Virus record (IMG/VR): IMGVR_UViG_3300036778_000062
Coordinates: 76,646 to 140,645 of that record
DNA: 64,000 nt
Direction: 5' to 3' (one strand)
Source: a virus
Lineage: Duplodnaviria > Caudoviricetes
Numbering within the stretch: the first letter of the stretch is position 1; every line of letters begins with the position of its first letter. Both the position numbers and the translations under genes were made by a program. A model generated the notes under the pieces. That model was given only the letters and a program-made list of their open reading frames with translations, had not been told where the DNA came from and did not search any database. Shown here one piece after another: positions 23,654-62,480 of this stretch.

Positions 23654-24451
23654 CTATAAGAAGCCCGGGATCACCGGGCGCGCGATACATCGGCAATTGA
23701 TCAACTCGCCGGGCAGAACGTGCTTGTCGACCGCGGGATCGAACCAGCCTTTGGAAAGCTGGAATTTCTCCTTGTTGCGACCGGCGGCAACGTGTGTGGG
23801 TCGCGGATGCTTGCCGCCACCGCTGTGAACCCAGATAGCCTCTGTGATGCCGGCCTGCACCTGGCGCGCGCGGGTCATCACCGCGGTCGCCTTGTTGTTC
23901 TGGTCTCGCGCGATAGTCGTCGCGCGCCGCTTCGTCACTCCGAACTGTTCTTGCAGGGCCTTGGTGAGCTGGCCGAGATCGCGCCCGGTCTGCACCGAAC
24001 GCATCACCATGCCCTCGACCTGGATCAGATACTGCTGCGGGATCGACTTGATGAGGGATACCTGCTCATTGATCGTTGCGTCGATGACGTCGCGCATCGC
24101 CGGCGTCATGTTGAATTTGACGGTGAAGCCGCCATCGCGAAGGATCTTCTTCAGAGCCGCATCGCTGCGCGCATGAACTGTAGTCGCAAAATATTCCGCG
24201 AGCTTGGGTGCGGCTCGATCGAAATTCCGCTTCCATCGACGCGCCAGTTGGCGAACCGCTAGCCGCAACTCTTCGGCCGGATTTCGGTCCTGGGCCATGA
24301 TCGGCGGGTTCTGCCGATATGCCGCCTTGAGCCAGTAGACGAACGAGGCGTTCATCTCCTCAATCAGCTCGATGAGCTTCCGACGGTATGCCGACTCGAT
24401 ACCGGCGTTCGGGTGAACCGGCCGCAGCGTCTTTGCTTTCGGCCGCTTCAC
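23654..24451 (-). CDS. Minor head protein (MuF/SPP1 gp7 family)
   Basis: RA.TIARDQ.NK, W.HS....PR.TH, PGELINCRC. Confidence 0.92.
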   Translation of the reverse strand: MKRPKAKTLRPVHPNAGIESAYRRKLIELIEEMNASFVYWLKAAYRQNPPIMAQDRNPAEELRLAVRQLARRWKRNFDRAAPKLAEYFATTVHARSDAALKKILRDGGFTVKFNMTPAMRDVIDATINEQVSLIKSIPQQYLIQVEGMVMRSVQTGRDLGQLTKALQEQFGVTKRRATTIARDQNNKATAVMTRARQVQAGITEAIWVHSGGGKHPRPTHVAAGRNKEKFQLSKGWFDPAVDKHVLPGELINCRCIARPVIPGFL

Positions 24452-27096
24452 TTCAATCGCCCGAACGCGCTGTCCGTCAGCGACTTGTCCGAAGCCCCGC
24501 CGCCCGGCCGCTTGACGCCGTTGCGTTTCAAGAAGTCATTGAGCTGCTTTGCTCCGGTTGGCGAAGCGGAGGCGATGCGAACATCTTCCAGCTCGTTGGG
24601 CACCACGACCTCGCCGGCCGAGTTGAACTTCGGCTTCCAGCCGCCAGCAAGCGCCTTTTCGAAAGCAGTCTCGCGTTCGTTGGATCGAGCCCGCTGCTTT
24701 TCACGTTCAGCCCGCCTTTGGGCATCCTGTTCGGCCTTGCGCTCGGTGGCCGACATCTTGCCCCACCGGCTCATTTCCGTGGCGAATTCCTGCTCCTCTT
24801 CACCGACCTCATCGTGTTCGCGCGCCATGATTTGGTCCATCTCAGCGATGGCGCTTTCGGAGCCTGATTTCAACTCGATCACCGCGGACTGCAGTCTGTC
24901 CAGGGCCTCCTGCACGTCGTCCTCATCGGCGTCCGGATCGTCAAGGTGATCCCGCAGGTTCTCAGTCGCATCGTCCACTTCAGACGCCAGTCCTTCGAGG
25001 TGGTCCGCCAGGTTCGCCATCTTCGCGGCGCCGATGTGCGTCACCGTCTGCGATTTCTGTCCCGCTTCGATAGGGGCGGCTCCCAGCAGATCGGCCGCTC
25101 GATTGTGCATGTCTTGCGCCGCTTTTCGCAAAGCGTCGGCTGCCGCCGGCGCTTCACCGATCGCATCGCGGAAATCCGACTCTGCTGTGAACTCTTCACC
25201 ATCCTCCAGCTCGGCACGATCCTCCGGCGTGATATCCATGATGTCGTCAGCGGCAGTCCCGATCTGCTCTCGAACCGATTCCAGATTGTCGCGAGCCTCG
25301 GATATCCCTTTCGATGCTTCACCGAACTTAGCTGCGCGAGCCTTGCTCGCCGCTTTTTCGGCGCCACCGCCGCCAGCTTCCCAGCGGCCGGAGTCATCGC
25401 GAGGATGATCAGCTTCGGTGAAATCTTCGTCGGAGGCTAAGCTGCTCGACGGCTCTCCGCGCGCCGCGCCGCCCTTAGGCTCGAGACCTTCGTCCTCTTC
25501 CTCTTTCAGGTCGGGCATGTCCTCGGTATTGAGGCCCGGATAGAGCGTGTCCGGCGCGTTGGCGACGCGCTTGCGCTCTTCTTCGGGTGAGATGACACCG
25601 CTGTCGATCTGGATCTGCGCCGTCTCCGAGTTGACTTTGCGGACGTCTGCCTGCCCCTTTTCGTCCAGCTCCCACAGAGGCTCGTAAGTGTAGAAAAGAT
25701 CAGGATCGACGCGCCCCCAGATATTGATTTGTGCGAACCGGAATACGCGGTCGAGGTTTGGCGAAAAGAACTGTTCCTGTTTCGCATGGATGTGGTCGTA
25801 GAACGCGCGCAGCTCAGGCTCTGCTGTCGCGTTCAAGCCGTGTGGCGAGATGCCGAGCAGCTTGACCAATGGGATACGTGATACCGATGCTTGATGCTCC
25901 TGCGCCTGGGCCTGCAGCATATCCAACGACGCGAGCGACGTGGATACGTTCTGGAATTCCTCCGATTCCGCGTCGATGACCATCACACCGCGGTTGTCGC
26001 GAGTGTTGTTGAATAGGTCTACGCGTTTGAAGAGCTGATCGCCGCCAGGCGTCAGCGTCTCGCCCATGTTGGTCGATAGCACGAAGACCGAGAAGGCCTG
26101 CACGATGTCGGCAACACTCTGCCGAATGTTCAGGAAGTTCTCGACGTACGGCTTCGCCATCTGCGTCAACGACAAGCCGCCGAACGAGTAGGCGGGTTTG
26201 AGCGCGTCAGGGACCGGTCGACCGACGAACTTCAGCAGCCTCGATACGTGGACTTCCCGGTCCATCACGAACCACGACTGCGGATTATACCAATCCGGCC
26301 GAAGCGGATTGTTCGAGTTGTAGCTCGTCGGGTACGTCCACATCGGTTCGACGACGGCTAACCGCTTCAGGTCTCCTCGTCCGAACTTCTGTTCCGTGAC
26401 GCCGTTCTTGCCGTTGCCGATCGGCATCTTCAGCTCGTTCCAATCGTCGGTGTCCCCGGTATCGAGATAGAGATGCGCACGGCCAAAGAACCCATCGACC
26501 TCGCAAGATTGGCAGAAGGTCTCACGAACCTTCAGACGCTCGAACTCTTCGTTGAGTTGCGCGATCTTCTTCGTTTTGTCCTTGTCGCCCTTCGCCTGGA
26601 TGCGGATCCACTTGCGAGTCATCTCGGTCGCGATCGTCTCGACCATGACGCGATATTCTGGACGCTGCGCGAGCTCGGCGAGGTACTGATAGCCGAGGAA
26701 CGCGATACCCTCGAAAGCGGCGTGGGAGCCCAGGGCATTCCAGGCACCGCCCGCCCAAGCCGAGATACCCGTTATCGCCTCGTCAGACGCCATCCTCCGA
26801 TCGACGGGGATGTTGTCCATAAGCTGGACCGGGAAGTCAGGCAGCTTGAACGGGTTGACGCGGGTGTAGCGTTCGGCCTTCTGCCTCGACCGTTGGAGAA
26901 CGTCGTCCGAAACGACGATCGGTTTCCGCTCGGCGCGATCGGCCGCTACCTTGATCTCCTCCGGCTGCAGCGTCTTCTTGGCGATCTTCCTTGCGACCCT
27001 ACGCGTCGGTGCGCGGCGCGCGCGTGCGGGCTTCTGCAGCTCTATGAACTCCAGCACCATCTGCCGGGCGAGCTGTTTGACGTCCTTCTTCTTCAC
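24448..27096 (-). CDS. Portal protein (DUF1073 type) with ~330-aa C-terminal extension
   Basis: FLGY.YL.ELAQRPEYR, EVH.SRL, IPLVKLLGISP.GLNA; directly after the terminase. Confidence 0.9.
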   Translation of the reverse strand: MKKKDVKQLARQMVLEFIELQKPARARRAPTRRVARKIAKKTLQPEEIKVAADRAERKPIVVSDDVLQRSRQKAERYTRVNPFKLPDFPVQLMDNIPVDRRMASDEAITGISAWAGGAWNALGSHAAFEGIAFLGYQYLAELAQRPEYRVMVETIATEMTRKWIRIQAKGDKDKTKKIAQLNEEFERLKVRETFCQSCEVDGFFGRAHLYLDTGDTDDWNELKMPIGNGKNGVTEQKFGRGDLKRLAVVEPMWTYPTSYNSNNPLRPDWYNPQSWFVMDREVHVSRLLKFVGRPVPDALKPAYSFGGLSLTQMAKPYVENFLNIRQSVADIVQAFSVFVLSTNMGETLTPGGDQLFKRVDLFNNTRDNRGVMVIDAESEEFQNVSTSLASLDMLQAQAQEHQASVSRIPLVKLLGISPHGLNATAEPELRAFYDHIHAKQEQFFSPNLDRVFRFAQINIWGRVDPDLFYTYEPLWELDEKGQADVRKVNSETAQIQIDSGVISPEEERKRVANAPDTLYPGLNTEDMPDLKEEEDEGLEPKGGAARGEPSSSLASDEDFTEADHPRDDSGRWEAGGGGAEKAASKARAAKFGEASKGISEARDNLESVREQIGTAADDIMDITPEDRAELEDGEEFTAESDFRDAIGEAPAAADALRKAAQDMHNRAADLLGAAPIEAGQKSQTVTHIGAAKMANLADHLEGLASEVDDATENLRDHLDDPDADEDDVQEALDRLQSAVIELKSGSESAIAEMDQIMAREHDEVGEEEQEFATEMSRWGKMSATERKAEQDAQRRAEREKQRARSNERETAFEKALAGGWKPKFNSAGEVVVPNELEDVRIASASPTGAKQLNDFLKRNGVKRPGGGASDKSLTDSAFGRLK

Positions 27097-28526
27097 GCGA
27101 GCGGCTTCCGTCGTCGGACCGGGATGGCTGACTTCGCGAGGACCTCGTCAGAAATGATGAGCGGCGCGCGCGCGACAAACGCGAGATAGTCCAAAGCCCA
27201 CACGAGCGCATCCATCCGATCGGGCGAACCTTCGAGCGCATAGCCGTCGCGGGTCATTGCGCACATCTGGTCCTCGAGCTCAATGAAGTCGCCGATATGA
27301 GAAATCTTGTTCTGCTCGTACAGAGCTGCGATCGGCTCGGCTCTCACGACCTTGCCGCGCGATGCGACGACTTCCTCATAGGGCACGCTTCTGTCGATCG
27401 TCCGGATGACGTGCTCGACCATGGCGCCGCCGTAGTTACGTTCGGCGACAATTCGATCAGCCTTGAATTCGTGATAGGCGGCAACCGCTCGCCGTCCCCA
27501 GCCATCCGGCGAGAGCTTGCAACTGCGATCCGCCAGGACGTAGCCGCGACCGTCTATACCCTTGCCGGCAACGATGATGCCGATCTCGTCGCCGTCGTCC
27601 TCGTCGCCGCCGGTGCCCGACGGGTCCACTGATACGACGATGCGCCGAAGGTCCGGAATCGTGACCGGCTTCCGAGCCTCATCGATCATGAGGCGCGTCC
27701 AGAGCGCGCCTGGCACGTCGTCGAGGATCTCGGCGTTCAGCTCCTGCCGGCCGAGCCGCGTCCCGCCATACCGATCCACGATCGACTGGATGAACGACGG
27801 CGGCAGGTTCGAGGCATTCGCCAGCGTGCTCCCGCTGGTGATACGGGTGAGCGCATCCTTGATCAGATATCGGATCAGCGGAATGGGGCGCGGCGTGGTG
27901 GTGATGCAGGCTCGCGGATGCAATCCAAGCCGCAGGCCGAATTGTAGTTGGTCCCAGGTGTCTTGCGCATAGCGCCACTTCGCCAGCTCATCGCACCACG
28001 CCGCATCATGTTGCGGGCCGCGGAGCTGGTCCGGCTCAGTTGCGTTGTACAGCGTGGCGATCGCACCATTGGGCCATGTGAGGCGGCGTTTGGACGGCTC
28101 GTAGTCCGGCCGGAAATCTTTCGGGTGAACCTGTAGAAGGCCAGAGCCTTCGTCTTCGGCTTTGCCGTCACCGACCATCACTTCGCGCGCATCGGCAGCA
28201 GTTTCCGCGATCAGCGCTAGCTGGCGATATCGACCGCGGCCGAGGGGCGTCGAACCGCAAACGTTGTCGCGAACCCACTCGGCGCCAGTGCGTGTTTTGC
28301 CGAAGCCGCGGCCGGCCATGAGCAGCCAGTATTTCCAGGCCGGATCGGCGGGCTCGATCTGGTCGGGGCGGGCCCAGAACTTCCAGTCCCAGCGAAGCGC
28401 CTCGAGCTGGCCGTCAGTCAGACCCGCCAGTATCTCCGCCCGTTCGCTTTCGGGCAGCGATGCTAGCAATTCGGCTTGCGATGAGTTCACGAGGACTGAC
28501 GTTCTTGGTTTCGATGGGGCCGCCAC
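27093..28526 (-). CDS. terL: Terminase large subunit
   Basis: Walker A AGRGFGKT, LRGPQ, WCDELAKW, TTTPRP, nuclease VSVDPS...SPDRMDALVW; true start may be the GTG near 28490. Confidence 0.95.
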   Translation of the reverse strand: MAAPSKPRTSVLVNSSQAELLASLPESERAEILAGLTDGQLEALRWDWKFWARPDQIEPADPAWKYWLLMAGRGFGKTRTGAEWVRDNVCGSTPLGRGRYRQLALIAETAADAREVMVGDGKAEDEGSGLLQVHPKDFRPDYEPSKRRLTWPNGAIATLYNATEPDQLRGPQHDAAWCDELAKWRYAQDTWDQLQFGLRLGLHPRACITTTPRPIPLIRYLIKDALTRITSGSTLANASNLPPSFIQSIVDRYGGTRLGRQELNAEILDDVPGALWTRLMIDEARKPVTIPDLRRIVVSVDPSGTGGDEDDGDEIGIIVAGKGIDGRGYVLADRSCKLSPDGWGRRAVAAYHEFKADRIVAERNYGGAMVEHVIRTIDRSVPYEEVVASRGKVVRAEPIAALYEQNKISHIGDFIELEDQMCAMTRDGYALEGSPDRMDALVWALDYLAFVARAPLIISDEVLAKSAIPVRRRKPLA

Positions 28527-31413: not shown

Positions 31414-31632
31414 ATGACGAAAGATGATGCGCGCCGACAGATACTCGCCGAATGGCGAACATGGGCACCGAACCACGCCAGAGCCGCGCCAAAACCCAAC
31501 GGCATGGATGGCTTGATGTTCTTCGCCGACCTGCAGCGGACGAACAGCCACCTCCTAAATTTTAAAGATCGCGGCGACAAGTGGCAGACAGTGCACGGAT
31601 GGCTGCTACGAGATGGACTGGTTTCCGATTAA
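31414..31632 (+). CDS. Small hypothetical protein
   Basis: 72 aa, LLNF...GDKWQTVHGWL; converges on the ParB-N gene. Confidence 0.6.
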   Translation: MTKDDARRQILAEWRTWAPNHARAAPKPNGMDGLMFFADLQRTNSHLLNFKDRGDKWQTVHGWLLRDGLVSD

Positions 31633-32231
31633 CCGATGTTGATCGTGCCTTGCTCGACTGTGACGCCGGCGAAAGGCTTCATGGCCTGTTCGAGTGCGCG
31701 CAGCGCGTTGGCCTGCTGCGCGAGCGGACCCCGTATCGAAATCCAGAACTCGTCTTCCACGGCGCCGGTCTCGATCTCTTTGACTTCGAGATCGTCAGGC
31801 TCGTCCAGGAGCTTCTTGAGCTCGCCCTGCGAGAAGCCGAGAGACAGTGCGTTCTCGCCATCATCCTGCAGCTCGAGGATCACATCGCGCAGGATGTCGT
31901 CATCCCAGCGGGAGTTCTCCGGAATCCGGTTGAGCGCGATGGCGAGCGCCTTGTAGCCGGCTTCCGAGAGGCCGGCGACGACGCGGCATTCGGCCTCAAC
32001 ACGGCCGAGGCGTTTCAGGGCTTCAAGTCGGCCTTCGCCGCCGACCAGGACTCCAGTCGGGCGGATGACGAGCTTGTCGATATAGCCGAAGCGTTCGATC
32101 GATTGCGCGATCTGCGCAATCTGCGATTCCGAGTGCCGGCGCGCATTCTTCGGATCTGGCTTGATGTCGGCCAGCTTGCGCACTTCGTCGGTGATGACGG
32201 GCTCACCGGCGGCTTTGGGCTGTTTCGCCAT
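31629..32231 (-). CDS. ParB/Srx N-terminal domain protein
   Basis: IKPDPKNARRH...QIAQSIERFGY...G.GRLEA...ALNRI.ENSRWD. Confidence 0.85.
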   Translation of the reverse strand: MAKQPKAAGEPVITDEVRKLADIKPDPKNARRHSESQIAQIAQSIERFGYIDKLVIRPTGVLVGGEGRLEALKRLGRVEAECRVVAGLSEAGYKALAIALNRIPENSRWDDDILRDVILELQDDGENALSLGFSQGELKKLLDEPDDLEVKEIETGAVEDEFWISIRGPLAQQANALRALEQAMKPFAGVTVEQGTINIG

Positions 32232-32422
32232 CAGCTCGTTCCGACCTTCTTCAAACGGAAATTGTGCACCCACGTTTCCTTCAGCTCGGCGTCCTTCCAC
32301 CAGGAAACGAGGATCTGTAGGCCATGCGGATAGACCGCGAACCCGACGACCGTCGCCGTGATGTCGCCGCCGTCGATCTGCACTTTGTCGCCAAAACCAA
32401 ATTCTGAATTGTACTGCGGCAC
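32231..32422 (-). CDS. Small SH3-like hypothetical protein
   Basis: AGGAG RBS, GTG start (approximate), FGFGDKV pattern, TGATG coupling to ParB-N. Confidence 0.5.
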   Translation of the reverse strand: MPQYNSEFGFGDKVQIDGGDITATVVGFAVYPHGLQILVSWWKDAELKETWVHNFRLKKVGTS

Positions 32423-34515: not shown

Positions 34516-35046
34516 CTAACCTGGCCTGACATTCTGCGCGGCGAGGATGACGAGACCGCGCGTGAAATTCGCGAGGTGAGCAGAGTAGGGGATTGCCTTC
34601 TCACCGCGTTGGGCCTGGCGCTGGCGATAGAGTTTGTACTCGGCGTTGACCTGTTTCAGCTCGCCCTTGCGCCGCGCCTCTTCGACATCGCGCGTAATCC
34701 GGGCGACGGCATTTTGTGCATCCCGTGAGACCTCATTTGCAGATCGAAACGAGGCGCCGAGATAGCCGGCGACGTTCGCCAGCGTGTCGCGGACTTCTCG
34801 CCCCGGCATATCGATCCAGCCTTCCGGCCGGGTCGCGCCGATCGCTTCCAGATCAGTGAGGGTATGGCTCAGAACAAGTTCGGCGTGCTGCGGTTTGGCG
34901 AACCAAAGCGCATCGACCAGCACGACGTTTTTTTCCTGATCGGTCGAGATTTTCGAGGGCTGCTTGCCGTCAACCGCAAAGACCATCAGCGCGCGGATTT
35001 CGAGCGCGGCGAGGTAGGCCTGAACGAGGGAATCGCGGGTACTCAC
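34516..35046 (-). CDS. Hypothetical phage protein
   Basis: 176 aa ORF with phage-like codon usage, divergent from the 35.2-kb operon. Confidence 0.6.
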   Translation of the reverse strand: MSTRDSLVQAYLAALEIRALMVFAVDGKQPSKISTDQEKNVVLVDALWFAKPQHAELVLSHTLTDLEAIGATRPEGWIDMPGREVRDTLANVAGYLGASFRSANEVSRDAQNAVARITRDVEEARRKGELKQVNAEYKLYRQRQAQRGEKAIPYSAHLANFTRGLVILAAQNVRPG

Positions 35047-35086
35047 AGCGGGATTTAGCTACCCGATCAGCAATTTAGGCCGGATT

Positions 35087-35101
35087 AACAGCTATTCTGT
35101 T
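35087..35101. promoter_or_regulatory. Putative repressor operator AACAG-CTATT-CTGTT
   Basis: Same ACAG-N5-CTGT palindrome as at cro/cI and PL. Confidence 0.75.
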
Positions 35102-35113
35102 TCACGTGAAACC
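35098..35113. promoter_or_regulatory. parS: parS-like site TGTTTCACGTGAAACC
   Basis: 15/16 match to chromosomal parS TGTTTCACGTGAAACA; perfect 14-bp palindrome. Confidence 0.75.
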
Positions 35114-35264: not shown

Positions 35265-35501
35265 ATGGCCTTCGCTTTTGATACCCTCGGTTACTCGAAG
35301 CACCTGCAGGGTGCAGGCGTCACGGCAAAGGAAGCCGATGCGCATGCGGAAGCCGCCCGGAATTTCATCATGAACGAGCTCGTCACCAAGTCTGACCTCG
35401 CGCTGGCACTCGAAAACGTCACCTCGGCACTGACCATCCGCCTCGGCGGTATGATCGCGGCCGGTATCGCGGCGCTCGCCGTCCTTCAGCGCTTCCACTG
35501 A
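35265..35501 (+). CDS. DUF1640/CCDC90-like small membrane-anchored protein
   Basis: FDTL.....L..AG.....A.A head, LVTK.DL neck, LTIRLGGM TM. Confidence 0.7.
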   Translation: MAFAFDTLGYSKHLQGAGVTAKEADAHAEAARNFIMNELVTKSDLALALENVTSALTIRLGGMIAAGIAALAVLQRFH

Positions 35502-35582: not shown

Positions 35583-36671
35583 ATGTCTACCACCCTCACG
35601 CAAGCCAACGCCCAATGGTCCCGCCGCCCGGCCGATGAACGGTTTTCGTCGATCGAGGCTATGGACCGCGCCGCGCGCGCCTTCAAAACCTCGGCCATTG
35701 TCGAAGAGATCAAGACCAACGCGCTCCGCATCGCGGCGCAGGGCAATGACCTGGTGCTCGAAACCCCGAAGGGCGCGCCCGCACTCCTGACCAACTGGTC
35801 TTTCAGCCAGATCGCAAGCCGCGCCTCCGCGCCGGCGGCATATCTGAAAGACCTTCCGGCCTCGCTCGCGGCCGACTGTCTCAACCACGGGCTCAAGCAA
35901 GCCGGAGACGACGAGAAGGGCGCGCAGCTGCTGCTTGGCAATGCCGGCAAGGCCGTGGCGCCGATCGCACGGGCTATCACCTCCGACAAGTACAGCCGCA
36001 TTTGGAATGCGGACATCACGTCGCGCTTGCTCGAGCTGGAAGCCCGCGGCCCTTGGCAACCGGCGCCGGCGGCCTTCGATGGCTCGCGCGGCCTCTATCT
36101 CGGCGACCGCGATATGTTTGCGTTCCTTGTCGACAACGAACGCCGCATTTTCGAGACCGGTCCCGGCGGTGGTCTGTCCCGTGGCTTCTTCGTTTCCAAC
36201 TCCGAGGTCGGTGACGCTTCATTCCAGATCATGACGTTCTTTTACGAGTACGTATGCGGCAACCATCGGGTTTGGGGCGCGCAGGGTATCGCCGAAGCCA
36301 AGGTCATCCACATCGGCAACGATCAGTCGTCGAAGGCTTTCGACATCATGGCGGTCGAGGTCAAGAAATATGCCGAGGCCTCGGCGAAGGACGACGAGCA
36401 GATGGTCGAGCGCTGCCGGCGCTACGTCATCGCCGCCAAGAAGGAAGACGTCCTTGATGCCATCTTCAAGTTGAAGGTGTCGGGCCTCGGCAAGACCGTC
36501 GCGGGCAAGGCGTACGATCTCGCCGCGCAGCGCGAAGACTGGTACGGCGCGCCGAACACGGCTTGGGGTTATGCCGGCGGCCTGACCGAGATCGCCCGCG
36601 ATCTGCCGAACGCCTCCGACCGTCACGCGCTCGACTGCGCGGCCACCAAGATCATGGAAATGGCTGCCTGA
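35583..36671 (+). CDS. DUF932-family protein
   Basis: W..RPADERF, LTNWSFSQ, LY..DRDMF.FL, GF.V.NSEVG, YVCGN. Confidence 0.75.
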   Translation: MSTTLTQANAQWSRRPADERFSSIEAMDRAARAFKTSAIVEEIKTNALRIAAQGNDLVLETPKGAPALLTNWSFSQIASRASAPAAYLKDLPASLAADCLNHGLKQAGDDEKGAQLLLGNAGKAVAPIARAITSDKYSRIWNADITSRLLELEARGPWQPAPAAFDGSRGLYLGDRDMFAFLVDNERRIFETGPGGGLSRGFFVSNSEVGDASFQIMTFFYEYVCGNHRVWGAQGIAEAKVIHIGNDQSSKAFDIMAVEVKKYAEASAKDDEQMVERCRRYVIAAKKEDVLDAIFKLKVSGLGKTVAGKAYDLAAQREDWYGAPNTAWGYAGGLTEIARDLPNASDRHALDCAATKIMEMAA

Positions 36672-45574: not shown

Positions 45575-46021
45575 TTACTGGTCGAAAAGGTCGATCTGGC
45601 TCTGCCGAGCTTTCAAAGCGTCGATACGGCGCTGCGCCGCCGCGATCTCGCGACGCGTCTTGCGAAGGTCATGCGCGTTCTGAGTGGTCAGCCACCATTC
45701 GGCCTGGCTGTTGCCCATCAGGGCCTTGAGGATCTCGTAACCCTCATCCGATCGCAGCAGAGCGATGACGTTTTCCAGCGATAGACCCGTCTGTCGCGCA
45801 AACCAGAACTGTACGGCGCGCTCGGAAACGCCGATCTCGTGGTGAACACAAGCTGCGGTTTTCTTTGGCCACCGCGCCATGAGAACATTCAGGATTTTCT
45901 CGAAAATCCCGAAGAGTTCTTCGTTTTTGGCGAAGGGCGCTACAGCCACGGAATTTGCTTTTTTGGAACCGGTCGGCGATGGTTCCGGCGTCGATAACGA
46001 CGGAGTTGTTCGCACCTTCAT
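45575..46021 (-). CDS. CII-like HTH regulator
   Basis: WPKKTA......GVSERAV.FW; directly after cro. Confidence 0.6.
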   Translation of the reverse strand: MKVRTTPSLSTPEPSPTGSKKANSVAVAPFAKNEELFGIFEKILNVLMARWPKKTAACVHHEIGVSERAVQFWFARQTGLSLENVIALLRSDEGYEILKALMGNSQAEWWLTTQNAHDLRKTRREIAAAQRRIDALKARQSQIDLFDQ

Positions 46022-46245
46022 GCCGCGGCCTCTTCCTGGTGCATCATCATCAGGGAATCGGAGTTCACACCCTCGATTCCCTTTTCGGCTGCCGCGGCAA
46101 TGATCTTGGGCCAGTAGCGAGGCCGGATTGAACCGGTCCGTTTCATCTCGCTGGCTGTACTGGGGATTTTCTCGATGACCTTGGCGAAATCGGTTGGTCC
46201 GCCGAAGGCATCAATCAATTCAGAAATGGTTCTGGGTCCGGCCAT
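46018..46245 (-). CDS. cro: Cro-like repressor
   Basis: LIDAFGG...FA...MK..GSI..RYW; divergent from cI. Confidence 0.8.
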   Translation of the reverse strand: MAGPRTISELIDAFGGPTDFAKVIEKIPSTASEMKRTGSIRPRYWPKIIAAAAEKGIEGVNSDSLMMMHQEEAAA

Positions 46246-46252
46246 GAGCCGC

Positions 46253-46293
46253 ATTTACAGAACATCTGTTAATTCTGTCAACAGGATTTCTGT
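46253..46293 (-). promoter_or_regulatory. PR/OR: TTGACA (46281-46276) and two operators ACAG-N5-CTGT (46257-46269, 46281-46293)
   Basis: cro-cI intergenic region, read directly. Confidence 0.8.
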
Positions 46294-46318: not shown

Positions 46319-47065
46319 ATGGATGAAAGCAATACTCGCCTCAGGCAGGCCCGCATCAAAGCCGGGTTCAGATCCGCCCGTGCTGCTGCGCTCCGGCACA
46401 ACTGGGTAGTGTCAACCTATGCCAGTCACGAGAACGGGCAGACACCTGTACCGAAGGAGACAGCCGACCAGTACGCAAAGGCGTTCAAGGTGTCGCGTGC
46501 TTGGCTACTCGCCGTCGATGGTTCGGTTAACCAGGCGCGAAAGAAGGAGCAATCCCGCGTTGCAACGTCTATTGGCGACGATGGCGGCTTGGAGTTGTAT
46601 CCTCATACCGAGGTCCCAGAGATCGACGTACTAGCGGGTGCAGGATATGCCGGCGGATTCAATCAAGAAGAAAATACAATCGACCAATTTGGCAATCATG
46701 TCTCCAGGGACGCCATTCGAGCTAGTTGGGGAATCCCTGAGCCCTTTCTGACAAACGAGCTCCATATCCGGCCGGGTAGGGCTCACATCCTTCCTGTTCG
46801 GGGCGACTCGATGACAGATGCCCTTTTCGATGGAGACAGGGCAATCATCAATCTCGACGACGTCGATATCAGCCAGGGCGGCATCTTTGCTCTGCTCGAC
46901 GACAACGCCTCGTTGATCATCAAGCAGGTCGAGTTCGTGCGCGGCACGAAAGCGAAGAGGATCCGCTGTACGTCGCGCAACTCGTCATACGAACCATTCG
47001 AATTGGATTTGGAAGAACCTGTTCGGATTATCGGGCGGGTGGCCAGCAAGATCACGAGGCTCTGA
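46319..47065 (+). CDS. cI: CI-like repressor (XRE HTH + S24 autopeptidase)
   Basis: RLRQAR...TYASHENG...AWLL; AGAG cleavage region; VRGDSM, IKQV, IIGRV. Confidence 0.92.
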   Translation: MDESNTRLRQARIKAGFRSARAAALRHNWVVSTYASHENGQTPVPKETADQYAKAFKVSRAWLLAVDGSVNQARKKEQSRVATSIGDDGGLELYPHTEVPEIDVLAGAGYAGGFNQEENTIDQFGNHVSRDAIRASWGIPEPFLTNELHIRPGRAHILPVRGDSMTDALFDGDRAIINLDDVDISQGGIFALLDDNASLIIKQVEFVRGTKAKRIRCTSRNSSYEPFELDLEEPVRIIGRVASKITRL

Positions 47066-47370: not shown

Positions 47371-47412
47371 AACAGAAACACTGTTGACAGTAATTCTGTT
47401 AATAGCTACAAC
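47371..47412 (+). promoter_or_regulatory. PL/OL: TTGACA(47384)-N17-TACAAC with two operators (47372-47384, 47387-47399)
   Basis: Perfect -35, GCTACAAC alphaproteobacterial -10, tandem ACAG-N5-CTGT. Confidence 0.85.
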
Positions 47413-56550: not shown

Positions 56551-57188
56551 ATGAGACATGGCCGGATTCTGACCGACGATGTTCGAAAAAAGATCGATGG
56601 GCTGATCGAGAGTATGAAGAGCCCGACCGCTGGGAAGATCGCGCGTAAGCTTGGGCTGAAAAACGGCACCGTCTACTGGTACATGCTCACGCACGGGCAC
56701 ATCACCCGAAAGCCTTCCAGCTACGCCCACAAACCATATGTCCGCAACGGTCAAACGATCTACCCGTACGCTCCGGAACACGACGCCATGTTGCTGGAAA
56801 TGCGGGTTGAGGATCTATCGTTCCAGGCGATAGCTGATGCTCTGACGGAACGCTTTGGCATCCCGCGGAACGCTCATTCGGTTCATAACCGCGCCATCAT
56901 GCTCGCTGCGATCGACGACGATAGCGAGGCAGCATGACCACTCGCGAATGGCGTGTCCACGAACAGGAAGAGGCCTATCTCGGTCCGGTAGCGATCGCCG
57001 TGTTCATCGACATCGGCTGGATCAGACGTTGGCCGAAGGCCTGGACCAAGGTTGGCCTGAGGGCAATCCGAAACGGATACGGTCGTTGGCCTGCCGGCGG
57101 CGTTTCGCATCTTCCGTATGGCACCGAGCGCATTCCAGGTGGCGCGGCCTATTGGCCTGGCCGCCGCGTCGAAATTCCGAAAGTCTGA
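56551..57188 (+). CDS. Two hypothetical genes (56551-56937 double HTH; 56934-57188)
   Basis: KIARKLGL..GTVYW and SFQAIA..L..RF HTH patterns. Confidence 0.55.
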
Positions 57189-57210
57189 AGCGAAGCACAT
57201 TGAGGACAAC

Positions 57211-58848
57211 ATGCAGACCCAAATTGAAATCCCCTTATCGAAGCTGAAGCGCGATCCGGCGAACGTGCGCAAAACTGACGTTGCGCCGAGCCCGAGATTT
57301 GTGGCGTCCGTGCGTGAACACGGCATCCTTGAGCCGCTGACCGTCCGGCCAAACGGCGAGGCGTATTATGCGATGGGCGGCGGAAAGCGCCTTGCCGCGC
57401 TGGCCGTCCTTCTCAAGGAAAAGGCGATCAGCCCCGAACACCCGGTGCCCTGCATCGTTCGTGAGGTCGAAGGAAAGGATGCTCGCGACATCGGTCTGAC
57501 GCTCAACTATATGCGCGAGGACATGCATCCGGTCGACGAATACGAAGCATTCGCCGACATGATCAAGGATGGCATGTCACCGGAGGAGATCGGCAAGAAG
57601 TATGGCCTCAAGAAGAAGGAGGTCGATCAGGTTCTTGCGCTCGGCAATCTCGCTCCGGAAATCCGCAATGCCTGGCGTGAGGAGAAACTCGACGAAAAGG
57701 CGGCGCGAGCATTCACGCTCGAGCCGGATCAGAACCGCCAGACGGACATCTTCAATTCGCTGCGGAAGCGCGGCGGCTTCAACGACTGGACCGTCCGATC
57801 GGCGATCGTGGGCAACGCGCACGAAGCTAAGGCGATGATGGATTTCGTTGGGGTTGCTGTGTATCGCCAAGCAGGCGGTGCCATCACTCAGGATCTGTTT
57901 GCCGACGCTAAAGAGTCTGCAGAGATTGCCACCGACCTAAAACTGCTCAAAAAGCTGTACGATGACAAGTTGAAAATCAAGGTCGAGGAAGTAAAGGCCG
58001 AAGGCTGGAGGTGGGTCGAATTCCAGTCCGATCTTCCTTACAACGCACAATGGTGGGAATCGAAGCCCAAGAGCAGCATCAAAGCAGAGGAGCGTGGCAA
58101 CTACGGCGTCATCTTCTCTAAGGGCCATCACGGCGACATCAATATCAAGTTCGGCGTCGTAAAGCCGGTCCAGCAGAAGGCCGAGAAGCGCAAGGCCGCC
58201 GCCAAGGCTGGTGGCACCCCAGTCATGTTGCCGGCAGCTCTCTGCGGTCGACTGACTGATCAGATCACCAAGGCCACGGCCTCGGTGCTTGAGACAGACG
58301 GTAGCCTGGCGCTAGCGGCTATTTGCGCCGCGCTGACATCAGCCGGCTTTGACAATGCCTTCAACGTCAGTTCCGGCGCGCGTGGTGCCGCTAAATTCGT
58401 TCAACAATTCGAGCTGATGCGCAAGAAGAACACGGCGGACCTTTGCGCGGTGCTCGCGAAGGTCGCCGCACAATCGTTGGCGATCGGAGCGTCTGTCCAG
58501 GACAAACTTCCGCTGTCCAAGAATCGGCTTGGCGATCGCGCACTACTCGAAGCGCTCAACGCCAAGAAGCTGAACGCCGCATTGCGGGCCGGCTTCGACG
58601 CCCCCGACTATTTCAGGGGCGTCACGGCGCAGGCCTGCAAGGATGCGATCTTGCTCTGCGATCCGAAATACCCGTTCACCGGCAAGGAAAAGAAATCCGA
58701 CCTGGCGAAGCTCGCGGCGAACTTGGTCAAGAAATCGAATGCCGGCGACAAGGCAGGCTACCTGCCGCCAGAGATGCGGACGGCTCACTACGACGGACCG
58801 TCGGCGGACCCAAAGAAGGCTGTGAAGAAGAAGGCCGCGAAGAAGTGA
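57211..58848 (+). CDS. ParB/RepB/Spo0J-family protein (long plasmid/ICE type)
   Basis: NVRK, SVREHGILEPLTVR, GGKRL.AL, N..REDMHPVDE..AF, HTH, GG....DLF. Confidence 0.88.
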   Translation: MQTQIEIPLSKLKRDPANVRKTDVAPSPRFVASVREHGILEPLTVRPNGEAYYAMGGGKRLAALAVLLKEKAISPEHPVPCIVREVEGKDARDIGLTLNYMREDMHPVDEYEAFADMIKDGMSPEEIGKKYGLKKKEVDQVLALGNLAPEIRNAWREEKLDEKAARAFTLEPDQNRQTDIFNSLRKRGGFNDWTVRSAIVGNAHEAKAMMDFVGVAVYRQAGGAITQDLFADAKESAEIATDLKLLKKLYDDKLKIKVEEVKAEGWRWVEFQSDLPYNAQWWESKPKSSIKAEERGNYGVIFSKGHHGDINIKFGVVKPVQQKAEKRKAAAKAGGTPVMLPAALCGRLTDQITKATASVLETDGSLALAAICAALTSAGFDNAFNVSSGARGAAKFVQQFELMRKKNTADLCAVLAKVAAQSLAIGASVQDKLPLSKNRLGDRALLEALNAKKLNAALRAGFDAPDYFRGVTAQACKDAILLCDPKYPFTGKEKKSDLAKLAANLVKKSNAGDKAGYLPPEMRTAHYDGPSADPKKAVKKKAAKK

Positions 58849-60904: not shown

Positions 60905-61191
60905 TGCCGTCGATCCGGTACCACGTCACGCCCAGGGATGCGCCGCCGGACGTAGCGGCGCGCAAGCTTGGCCTGACCTTGGATCAGTTCAGTGCAAGGT
61001 TGCCGGAGCTGCTGGCTCGCGGCTTTCCGCCGATCGACAAGACCACCGGCAAATATGACCTGAAAGCCATCGAAGCATGGCAGGATTCCCGTTATCCACA
61101 GCTACTCGGCAAAAACGAGGTTCAGATCACCTCGGCGCCCTCTATCGATCCGACGGACATTCGGGAAAGATTAAAGGCTCTCGCAAAATGA
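60904..61191 (+). CDS. xis: Putative excisionase
   Basis: HTH with GFP..D..TG.YDL.AI.AW.D; overlaps the integrase start. Confidence 0.7.
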   Translation: MPSIRYHVTPRDAPPDVAARKLGLTLDQFSARLPELLARGFPPIDKTTGKYDLKAIEAWQDSRYPQLLGKNEVQITSAPSIDPTDIRERLKALAK

Positions 61192-62480
61192 TCGAGGCCG
61201 AGGACGTGAAGAAGGGCCCTAAAAAGCCGCCATACTATTGGGTCGATCAGGAAACCGGCATGGGTTACTGGTCGCCCAAGAAGCATATGCGCGACGCCGG
61301 GTTCGCCAATATCCGGTGCGGGCGAGACGGTCCGGAGGCGCAGGCCATTGCCTGGATGTGGGCCAAGCGCTGGAAGGATCACAAATCCGGAGTCCTTGCC
61401 GGAAACCCGCGCGAGGTTTGGCCCTCTGGTTCGCTCGGCGAGGCGTTTGAGCGCTTCCGTCGCACTTCGGAATGGAGCCGAAAGGCCCCGCGGACGCGTG
61501 AGGATTGGGATCGCGGCTGGAACCTCATCAAACCGGTGTTCGGAGCGCAGGACCCGAAGACCGTGACGCTCGAGGATATGTCGCTCTGGTATGCCGGCGA
61601 TCCTGACGACCCCGGTGTTCCGCATCTCCTTCATCCTGACCCGGCAAAGGGCGGCGTCGGCGTGCGAGAAGCGCATCGCGCCGTAAAAATCTGGCGGGCT
61701 TTGTGGCAGGTCGCGGCAGCGCTGAAATATTGCAATAGGGACGAGGATCCGTCGTTTGGCATCCGTCGCAAGACGCCAAAGGGCAGAAGCGCGCGATGGG
61801 ACTTCGAAGAGGTCCGGCGGCTCGTGAAACGGTCCTTGCGAATGCGCCGGCGCGGTCTTGCCTGTGTCCTGGCGATCATGTGGGATTCTCAGTTCTCGCC
61901 GGTCGATGTGCGGACACTTCGGGCCCGGCATCGCAAGATCGTTGGCGGCCGTCTCGTCTTCGATCGGAACGAGGGGCGCGGCAAGGCGCAGCAGGGCGAG
62001 GAAAAGGCCGTTGTGGGTACACTGTCACGCCGGACAGAGCGCTTGGTGAACTGGTATCTTGCCGAACAGTTTGGAAAGGCCGAACTGCATCCCGACACCA
62101 TCTTGTTCCTGTCGCCCGGCAGCGAGCCCGTGTCCCGAAAGGGTAAGAAGGGGGAATGGGGCGGCAATCACGGCGGGGGCAAGCCGCGCCAGCAGGGTCC
62201 TTATTCAAAGGATTTGCTGTCGAAAGACTTCGGCCGGGTCCGCGAGGCCGAATTCGGCGTCACCGAAACCCGGCAGATGATCGACATGCGGCGCTCGGCA
62301 TCGGTCGAGGCGCTGGCCGGGCAGGTAGACCCCGGCGTGCTGGCCGCCAAGATGGGGAACACGATCGACGAGTCCCGGGAGCTGCAGCGGACCTACCTGC
62401 CGGCCCAGGTCGCGGTTGTTCGAATGGCGGACGAGGCGCGGGTGGTCGGGCGCCGACGGCTTCGTAAAGATAAAGAGTAA
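61188..62480 (+). CDS. int: Tyrosine recombinase/integrase (divergent)
   Basis: LAPRTR-like core-binding region, DMRRS, MGN...TY catalytic C-term; adjacent to att. Confidence 0.8.
   Translation: MIEAEDVKKGPKKPPYYWVDQETGMGYWSPKKHMRDAGFANIRCGRDGPEAQAIAWMWAKRWKDHKSGVLAGNPREVWPSGSLGEAFERFRRTSEWSRKAPRTREDWDRGWNLIKPVFGAQDPKTVTLEDMSLWYAGDPDDPGVPHLLHPDPAKGGVGVREAHRAVKIWRALWQVAAALKYCNRDEDPSFGIRRKTPKGRSARWDFEEVRRLVKRSLRMRRRGLACVLAIMWDSQFSPVDVRTLRARHRKIVGGRLVFDRNEGRGKAQQGEEKAVVGTLSRRTERLVNWYLAEQFGKAELHPDTILFLSPGSEPVSRKGKKGEWGGNHGGGKPRQQGPYSKDLLSKDFGRVREAEFGVTETRQMIDMRRSASVEALAGQVDPGVLAAKMGNTIDESRELQRTYLPAQVAVVRMADEARVVGRRRLRKDKE

Follow-up and report, generated by a model that had tools for sequence, protein, structure and literature searches.

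Can a temperate phage keep a copy of its host's centromere site and hold it under the control of its own repressor? This question is raised by a short intergenic region in a temperate phage of Bradyrhizobium-like soil bacteria, in which a match to the bacterial chromosomal parS overlaps a candidate repressor operator. The DNA analysed (referred to as the window, 64,000 nucleotides in length) corresponds to bases 76646-140645 of a 140,645-bp IMG/VR record.

The phage and the position of the parS site

The portal and terminase genes, together with the CI-like gene described below, mark the element as a phage, an integrase-like gene is consistent with an integrating temperate phage, and a porin-like host gene flanks it:

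24448-27096: portal protein
27093-28526: large terminase
61077-62480: integrase-like gene
from 63088: porin-like host gene

The porin-like gene shares only ~50% identity with its Bradyrhizobium homologues, so the host of this record is Bradyrhizobium-like, not certainly Bradyrhizobium, and its parS has to be deduced from those of related hosts. The left 76 kb of the record (G000, positions 1-76645) contains far fewer high-GC3 ORFs than the prophage part (the whole record has 58.7% GC), and it may be a different element or a host island that was fused to the prophage in one viral record.

The site lies in a 218-bp spacer between the divergent gene p176 and a plus-strand accessory operon, which comprises the genes for a 78-aa protein, a DUF932-like protein, a MTase-like protein and others:

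34516-35046, minus strand: p176 (176 codons), the divergent gene bordering the parS spacer, possibly a regulator
35098-35113: host-type parS TGTTTCACGTGAAACC, kept in relatives
35265-35501, plus strand: first gene of the rightward accessory operon (78 aa, phrog_17872), inside the ~2-kb spreading range of ParB
35583-36671, plus strand: DUF932-like gene, used as an anchor for finding related loci

Contamination of the record with host DNA was rejected as a source of the site, since parS is placed between phage genes (terminase and portal at 24-28 kb, cI at 46 kb and the integrase-like gene at 61 kb) and recurs in proviruses.

The phage site and the parS sites of host chromosomes

The preliminary description of this DNA had reported a parS-like 16-mer matching the consensus at 15 of 16 positions, and such a site is indeed present: tgtttcacgtgaaacc at 35098-35113 shows 15/16 identity to the chromosomal parS consensus TGTTTCACGTGAAACA. 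The 14 bp at its core, GTTTCACGTGAAAC, form a perfect palindrome, and the whole site passes as a 16-bp palindrome of the type TGTTNCACGTGAAACA that characterizes chromosomal-type parS. In its setting the site departs from that type, as it occurs in a single copy in a prophage and is neither origin-proximal, nor clustered, nor located beside parAB. No second parS-like match was found in the 64-kb window at up to 3 mismatches, nor in all 140,645 bp of the record at up to 2. At the base composition of the window, a parS with no more than one mismatch is expected by chance 2.4-4.9e-4 times per 64 kb; a chance origin of the site was dismissed on the basis of this expectation (2-5e-4 per 64 kb) and of its conservation in relatives.

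The native counterparts were sought in seven Bradyrhizobium genomes, with up to 2 mismatches allowed. In these genomes parS forms a cluster of 2-6 sites within ~2.3 kb, located a few kb from the host parB, and the only off-cluster sites were a 2-mismatch site in G382 and two prophage copies, L006 in G001 (B. oropedii Pear76) and L009 in G004 (Bradyrhizobium sp. LjRoot220). In the draft assemblies, the prophages and the native cluster fall on separate contigs. The G382 site, CGTTTCACGTGAGACA (G382:C1:879668-879683), is a lone parS-like site 640 kb from the native cluster. The native sites have the form (T/C)GTTTCACGTGAAAC(A/G) and vary at positions 1 and 16 only, exactly like the phage copies. 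The proposed identity of the site as a host-type parS is thereby upheld, as the hosts of the relatives use the same core beside parB and, elsewhere, it is found only in these prophages.

In Caulobacter ParB, structural and mutagenesis data identified the residues contacting parS as Q162, G170, K171, S172, R173, N178, G201 and R204, of which R173 is invariable among parS binders (PMC7383237). The Bradyrhizobium host ParBs keep all eight of them (QEDIAK..GKSRSHVAN..GHAR, alignment A3), and the host ParB carries the LGRGLASL motif for interaction with ParA. Because canonical parS is confined, in the seven genomes searched, to the host parB cluster and to the prophages, host ParB is the likeliest binder of the phage site, and its reading of this site would be the most economical interpretation.

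Conservation of parS in related phages

Relatives of the locus were fetched with the DUF932-like protein and p176 from IMG/VR (L002-L005) and from species genomes (L006-L009, all Bradyrhizobium), and further ones from 401 genomes of the genus (L013-L015) and from metagenomes (L165-L169, of which L165, L166, L168 and L169 were added). Searches of phage and plasmid collections gave marginal matches only, and the extra p176 homologues obtained from genus and family genomes were all distant and devoid of parS. The conservation count covers all loci that have a p176 homologue bordering a divergent spacer (11 loci, with the window).

A parS-like palindrome (14-16 matches out of 16) precedes the p176 start by 33-66 bp in eight of the 11 loci and in at least three immunity types, which confirms the expectation that parS would be conserved at the same place in related phages. 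The match to the consensus is 16/16 in L006, 15/16 in the window, L002, L165 and L166, and 14/16 in L004 and L009, and the site of L168 is CGTTTCACGTGAAACG, a variant that is also used by hosts. The 14-bp core is perfect in five loci and contains one mismatch in three (L004, L009 and L166). The palindrome is missing from L007, L005 and L169, which have p176 with a divergent spacer, and from all of the distant p176 homologues inspected, many of which lie inside operons; L003 and L008 have neither p176 at this position nor parS. At the parS-positive loci the p176 proteins share only 25-55% identity and no alignment is obtained for the surrounding DNA, which argues that the palindrome is under selection of its own.

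These data also bear on the idea that the palindrome serves as the operator of a different transcription factor, encoded by the phage or the host, and that its likeness to parS is coincidental. The site is promoter-proximal and core mismatches are tolerated in three relatives, which would suit such an operator, but eight loci show 14-16/16 identity to the host consensus, which a random functional 16-bp palindrome would match with a probability of ~1 in 65,000, and the site persists across immunity types and beside p176 proteins that have diverged so widely. We therefore regard a coincidental likeness as very improbable.

Repressor operators and their overlap with parS

The window encodes a CI-like repressor, the presumed binder of a set of operators with the core form ACAG-N5-CTGT:

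35087-35101: operator AACAGCTATTCTGTT on the p176 side of the spacer, with the same junction in L002 and L165
35188-35202: second operator, TACAGAAACTCTGTT, over a TTTACA-N17-CATAAC promoter-like element of the rightward accessory operon, with a counterpart in L002 and L165
46256-46294: two operators between a divergent cro-like gene (46018-46254, minus strand) and cI
46319-47065, plus strand: CI-like repressor with HTH_31 and Peptidase_S24 domains
47371-47400: pair of neighbouring operators placed over a promoter-like element (TTGACA) of the rightward early operon

With up to one mismatch allowed, AACAG-N5-CTGTT occurs six times (at 35087, 35188, 46256, 46280, 47371 and 47386) versus 0.92 expected, and none of 100 shuffled sequences reached six. 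The TTTACA-N17-CATAAC promoter was read by eye, and a consensus scan gave no promoter there.

The operator aacagctattctgtt (35087-35101) and the parS site have TGTT at 35098-35101 in common, so that the four shared bases noted in the preliminary description are indeed there. When the extended operator consensus, TTAACAG-N5-CTGTTAA, is considered, the 35087 copy extends from 35085 to 35103, so that its overlap with parS amounts to 4-6 bp. The junction CTGTTTCACGTGAAAC is identical in the window, L002 and L165, i.e. in all three parS-bearing phages of this immunity type.

A different operator is used by the second immunity group. GGTTA-N2-TAACC is present at four sites in provirus G402 (three in the immunity region and one at the rightward promoter), and the loci L006, L009 and L166 share the arrangement GG(G/A)TA-N2-TAACC-GC-parS, in which an operator-like copy with one mismatch in 10 specified positions is separated from parS by a gap of 2 bp. 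In the third immunity group (L168, with L169 as the relative devoid of parS), an inverted repeat, ACCGCCC-N-GGGCGGT, lies near the rightward promoter, ~60-110 bp to the right of parS, and is probably the operator of this group; a GGGCGGTAA half-site is found near p176 of the same locus.

The order of elements is always p176, operator, parS, and a repressor site closely juxtaposed to parS is present in six of the eight loci. The claim that the overlap is conserved in related prophages can thus be retained in part: it holds for the junction in L002 and L165 and, as a nearly abutting operator, for L006, L009 and L166, but not for L168, where no evident operator adjoins parS, nor for L004, where only a half-site or degenerate operator is found beside it, and in L007 an operator occupies the corresponding position without parS. 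The juxtaposition therefore appears to be a rule, not a law, and gating of parS by the repressor would not be obligatory. The recurrent geometry supports a coupling of repressor and parS, a claim that stops short of masking. With an overlap or a 2-bp gap between the two sites, it is reasonable to suppose that simultaneous occupancy by repressor and ParB is sterically unlikely.

Proposed conditional loading of host ParB

Alphaproteobacteria rely on the ParB-parS system for segregation and for placement of the division site. In Caulobacter, a strong parS placed ectopically or on a plasmid is costly to fitness, and ParB spreads at most ~2 kb from a single parS (PMC5815017). Together with the confinement of parS to one cluster in the host genomes searched, these properties fit what we consider the best explanation of the locus, in which we have about even confidence: a functional host-type parS would be interlocked with a repressor operator, and host ParB would be loaded on it conditionally, after derepression.

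According to this model, which is built from sequence comparisons, phages of this group would maintain a copy of the host parS within the regulatory spacer that separates p176 from the divergent accessory operon. The repressor would occupy the site during lysogeny and spare the chromosome an ectopic centromere, repressor and ParB being predicted to exclude each other at the interlocked site. Upon repressor cleavage or infection, host ParB would nucleate on parS and load as CTP clamps over the neighbouring 1-2 kb, a region that includes the promoter of p176 and the beginning of the accessory operon, and with replication of the phage DNA progressively more ParB would be drawn onto phage genomes. 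The outcome, on which we can only speculate, may be the timing of p176 or a hijack or titration of ParB. In the former case, titration could act as a timer, p176 being released once the phage copies exceed ParB; in the latter, the gain for the phage could be a takeover of ParB, MipZ or SMC.

A more far-reaching version combines these possibilities into a repressor-gated host centromere. Occlusion of parS would spare lysogens its cost, and induction would expose many copies that pull ParB, together with MipZ and SMC, off the host origin, arrest segregation and division, and count phage genomes in order to time p176 as a late regulator. This version is tentative, and we think it rather less probable than conditional loading as such.

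If conditional loading proves true, the locus would represent a naturally occurring centromere whose exposure is conditional and wired into an immunity switch. It would provide a handle on how cells tolerate or exploit an ectopic parS, on whether ParB serves a phage as a timer or as a takeover target, and on the role of orphan phage ParB-like proteins.

The gene p176 and its promoter region

The position of parS draws attention to p176. This protein belongs to a family with ~146 representative relatives (clusters at 50% identity) and is confidently folded in its AF2 model (pLDDT 96.8). Searches of Pfam, PHROGs and NCBIfam returned nothing significant, and no match was found with Foldseek against the PDB. 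A weak structural likeness to the region 2 helices of ECF sigma factors was observed (Z 5-6, VIA-align), and the Atlas search gave T5orf172 leads only, which were sub-threshold.

Relative to the p176 ATG, the window and L002 have the centre of parS at about -59, and in L004, L006 and L009 it lies at -40.5 to -42.5. In front of the p176 start codons stands CGTCGCC or GCTCGCC and a Shine-Dalgarno sequence is lacking; the p176 mRNA may therefore be leaderless. A sigma-70 promoter overlapping parS was not detected by consensus scan in the window or in L006, and hexamers fitted by hand were weak.

The strict position of parS, 33-66 bp upstream of p176, would fit ParB control of the p176 promoter equally well, and it argues that ParB also affects p176. 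Host ParB could, then, bind for transcription only, as a co-repressor or timer of the p176 promoter that acts until phage genomes outnumber ParB, in which case the adjacency of operator and parS would reflect the action of both proteins on one promoter, and parS would have no part in centromere function or hijack. Several features agree with this: (i) parS is always on the p176 side and never elsewhere in the ~220-bp spacer or in the genome, (ii) it is absent where p176 homologues lie inside operons, (iii) there is one site only, versus the several usual in centromeres, and (iv) p176 weakly resembles sigma region 2. However, consensus scans located no promoter (in the window and L006), p176 received no assigned function in the family and structure searches, and ParB is present throughout the lytic cycle, so that relief of repression needs an extra assumption. 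A purely transcriptional role is thus possible but somewhat unlikely; moreover, it is compatible with conditional loading of host ParB and does not exclude it.

ParB-like proteins encoded by the phage

Host ParB is not the only candidate reader of the site, as the window itself encodes two proteins with ParB domains:

31629-32300, minus strand: stand-alone ParB_N protein (223 aa), without HTH
57118-58848, plus strand: ParB576, an orphan 576-aa ParB-like protein with ParB_N, HTH_ParB and a long C-terminal part

The 223-aa protein is unlikely to read parS. In ParB576, alignment A3 places the probable real start at 57211 (Met32), and the closest solved relative is Thermus Spo0J. Its family (the window, L016, L017 and L018) keeps the GxxR motif (GGKR in ParB576) and has another residue in place of the glutamate in the ENxxR CTPase motif (LNYMR, TNFIR, LNFIR and TNYIR). 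Its C-terminal 350 aa have no Pfam match; the family ends in a conserved WLPPELRT.HYDGP motif and a lysine-rich tail. No ParA was found in the whole record with PF13614 and PF01656 (the controls were positive), and a ParA-interaction motif of the LGRGL type was not found in ParB576 or its orthologues (alignment A3).

The distribution of ParB576 may point to a link with parS. All four parS-bearing prophages of sufficient completeness (the window, G402, G001 and G004) encode a full-length orthologue (37-44% identity), and none was found in G002, the genome of the parS-lacking near relative L007; by this co-occurrence, which comes from a tiny and phylogenetically linked sample, the phage protein could be the true partner of the site. 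In two genomes with a distant p176 homologue only, the sole ParB match was the host ParB (G312) or the ParB576-like genes were far from the p176 locus (G382). The phage site might accordingly be the loading site of ParB576, made from the early operon after derepression and acting as a BisD/KorB-like CTP clamp that is loaded beside the p176 promoter and slides so as to turn p176 and the late or accessory genes on or off, with the host-parS identity being due to ancestry or mimicry. Besides its domains and the GxxR motif, ParB576 is similar in size to BisD of ICEclc, a ParB-like activator clamp of 550 aa with bisS as its loading site (PMC12409273). The position of parS at a promoter is as expected for the site of a regulator, and no alternative site is apparent: no conserved palindrome was found near the ParB576 gene, and no other ParB-type palindrome was found in the phage. 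Short palindromes centred on TCGCGA occur upstream of ParB576 (window 56938-56951; L017 699-714 and 906-917), and they are too weak in GC-rich DNA to be called.

The residues that would read parS speak against this partnership. ParB576 keeps only two of the eight contact residues, G170 and R204, and position 173, where parS binders invariably have arginine (PMC7383237), is occupied by K, L, I or N in the four orthologues (alignment A3). The recognition helices diverge strongly among the orthologues (KKEVDQ, LPEVRQ, IPEVRQ and NKEVDQ), whereas their parS sites stay at the host consensus, and the ParB576-like paralogues of G382 and G003 have no canonical parS nearby. Loading of ParB576 is thus an unlikely account of the site, and the suggestion in the preliminary description that the phage ParB starting at 57211 might bind it is disfavoured, given the missing contact residues. 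Conditional loading of host ParB remains the preferred reading.

An extra ParB-like gene is present in the L009 prophage, in the accessory operon ~4 kb from parS (L026:1291-2388, G004:C2). The product (~300 aa) has canonical GERRYRA and ENVQRED motifs and the HTH sequence GLAPFRVRW, without the parS-reading motif GKSR; the window has no counterpart.

Wider occurrence and comparison with known systems

The exact sequence TGTTTCACGTGAAAC was found in at least 119 IMG/VR contigs (L033-L151), compared with 13 for a reversed control of the same composition (L152-L164). Among the matches listed, most comprise the full 16-mer, ~55% are outside ORFs of at least 100 aa and some contigs contain 3-5 copies; none of the contigs listed is related to this phage, and tblastn revealed no Bradyrhizobium-like parB nearby. 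The excess over the control suggests that phage-borne parS is much more widespread than the phi29 case.

Several known systems share single features with this locus. Sites of the Caulobacter and general alphaproteobacterial type are the same 16-bp palindrome, and the host ParB of the relatives keeps all known contact residues (PMC5815017, PMC7383237); the difference is that the phage site is located in a prophage, where an exposed strong site is expected to be costly. BisD/bisS of ICEclc (PMC12409273) and KorB/OB of RK2 are ParB-like CTP clamps regulating promoters of mobile elements, and the likeness consists in a mobile element with a long orphan ParB-like protein and a ParB-type palindrome at a regulatory region. 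Their sites, however, are element-specific and unlike host parS, whereas here the site has the host consensus and the phage protein lacks most of the reading residues. Centromere-like sites on a temperate phage genome are also known from P1 (parABS) and N15 (sopAB), being dispersed single inverted repeats in the latter (PMC7205306), but these phages are extrachromosomal and have their own ParA and ParB with private sites, in contrast to the integrase-like gene, the lack of ParA and the host-type site observed here.

The closest parallel is found in the Bacillus phages phi29 and Nf, virulent viruses which, according to PMC2731898 (citing Meijer et al. 2005), carry host-type parS and use it with host Spo0J to enter the spore. 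It follows that novelty can be claimed for the operator-parS interlock, of which we found no description in the literature searched on phage parS with host ParB, and not for a phage-borne host parS as such. The likeness is that the phage genome contains sites for the host partition protein with no matching canonical ParB/ParA of its own, and bears sites for a host or phage switch regulator as well. In our case, too, a host-consensus parS is conserved among related phages (8 of 11 loci). The differences are that phi29 is virulent, has a spore-forming host and uses five sites for entrapment of its genome in the spore, whereas the phage described here has a single site in 140.6 kb, interlocked with an immunity operator. 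What is new in comparison with phi29 and Nf is thus a temperate, integrating phage of a non-sporulating alphaproteobacterium, with one parS interlocked with the operator of its immunity system and an orphan ParB-like protein alongside.
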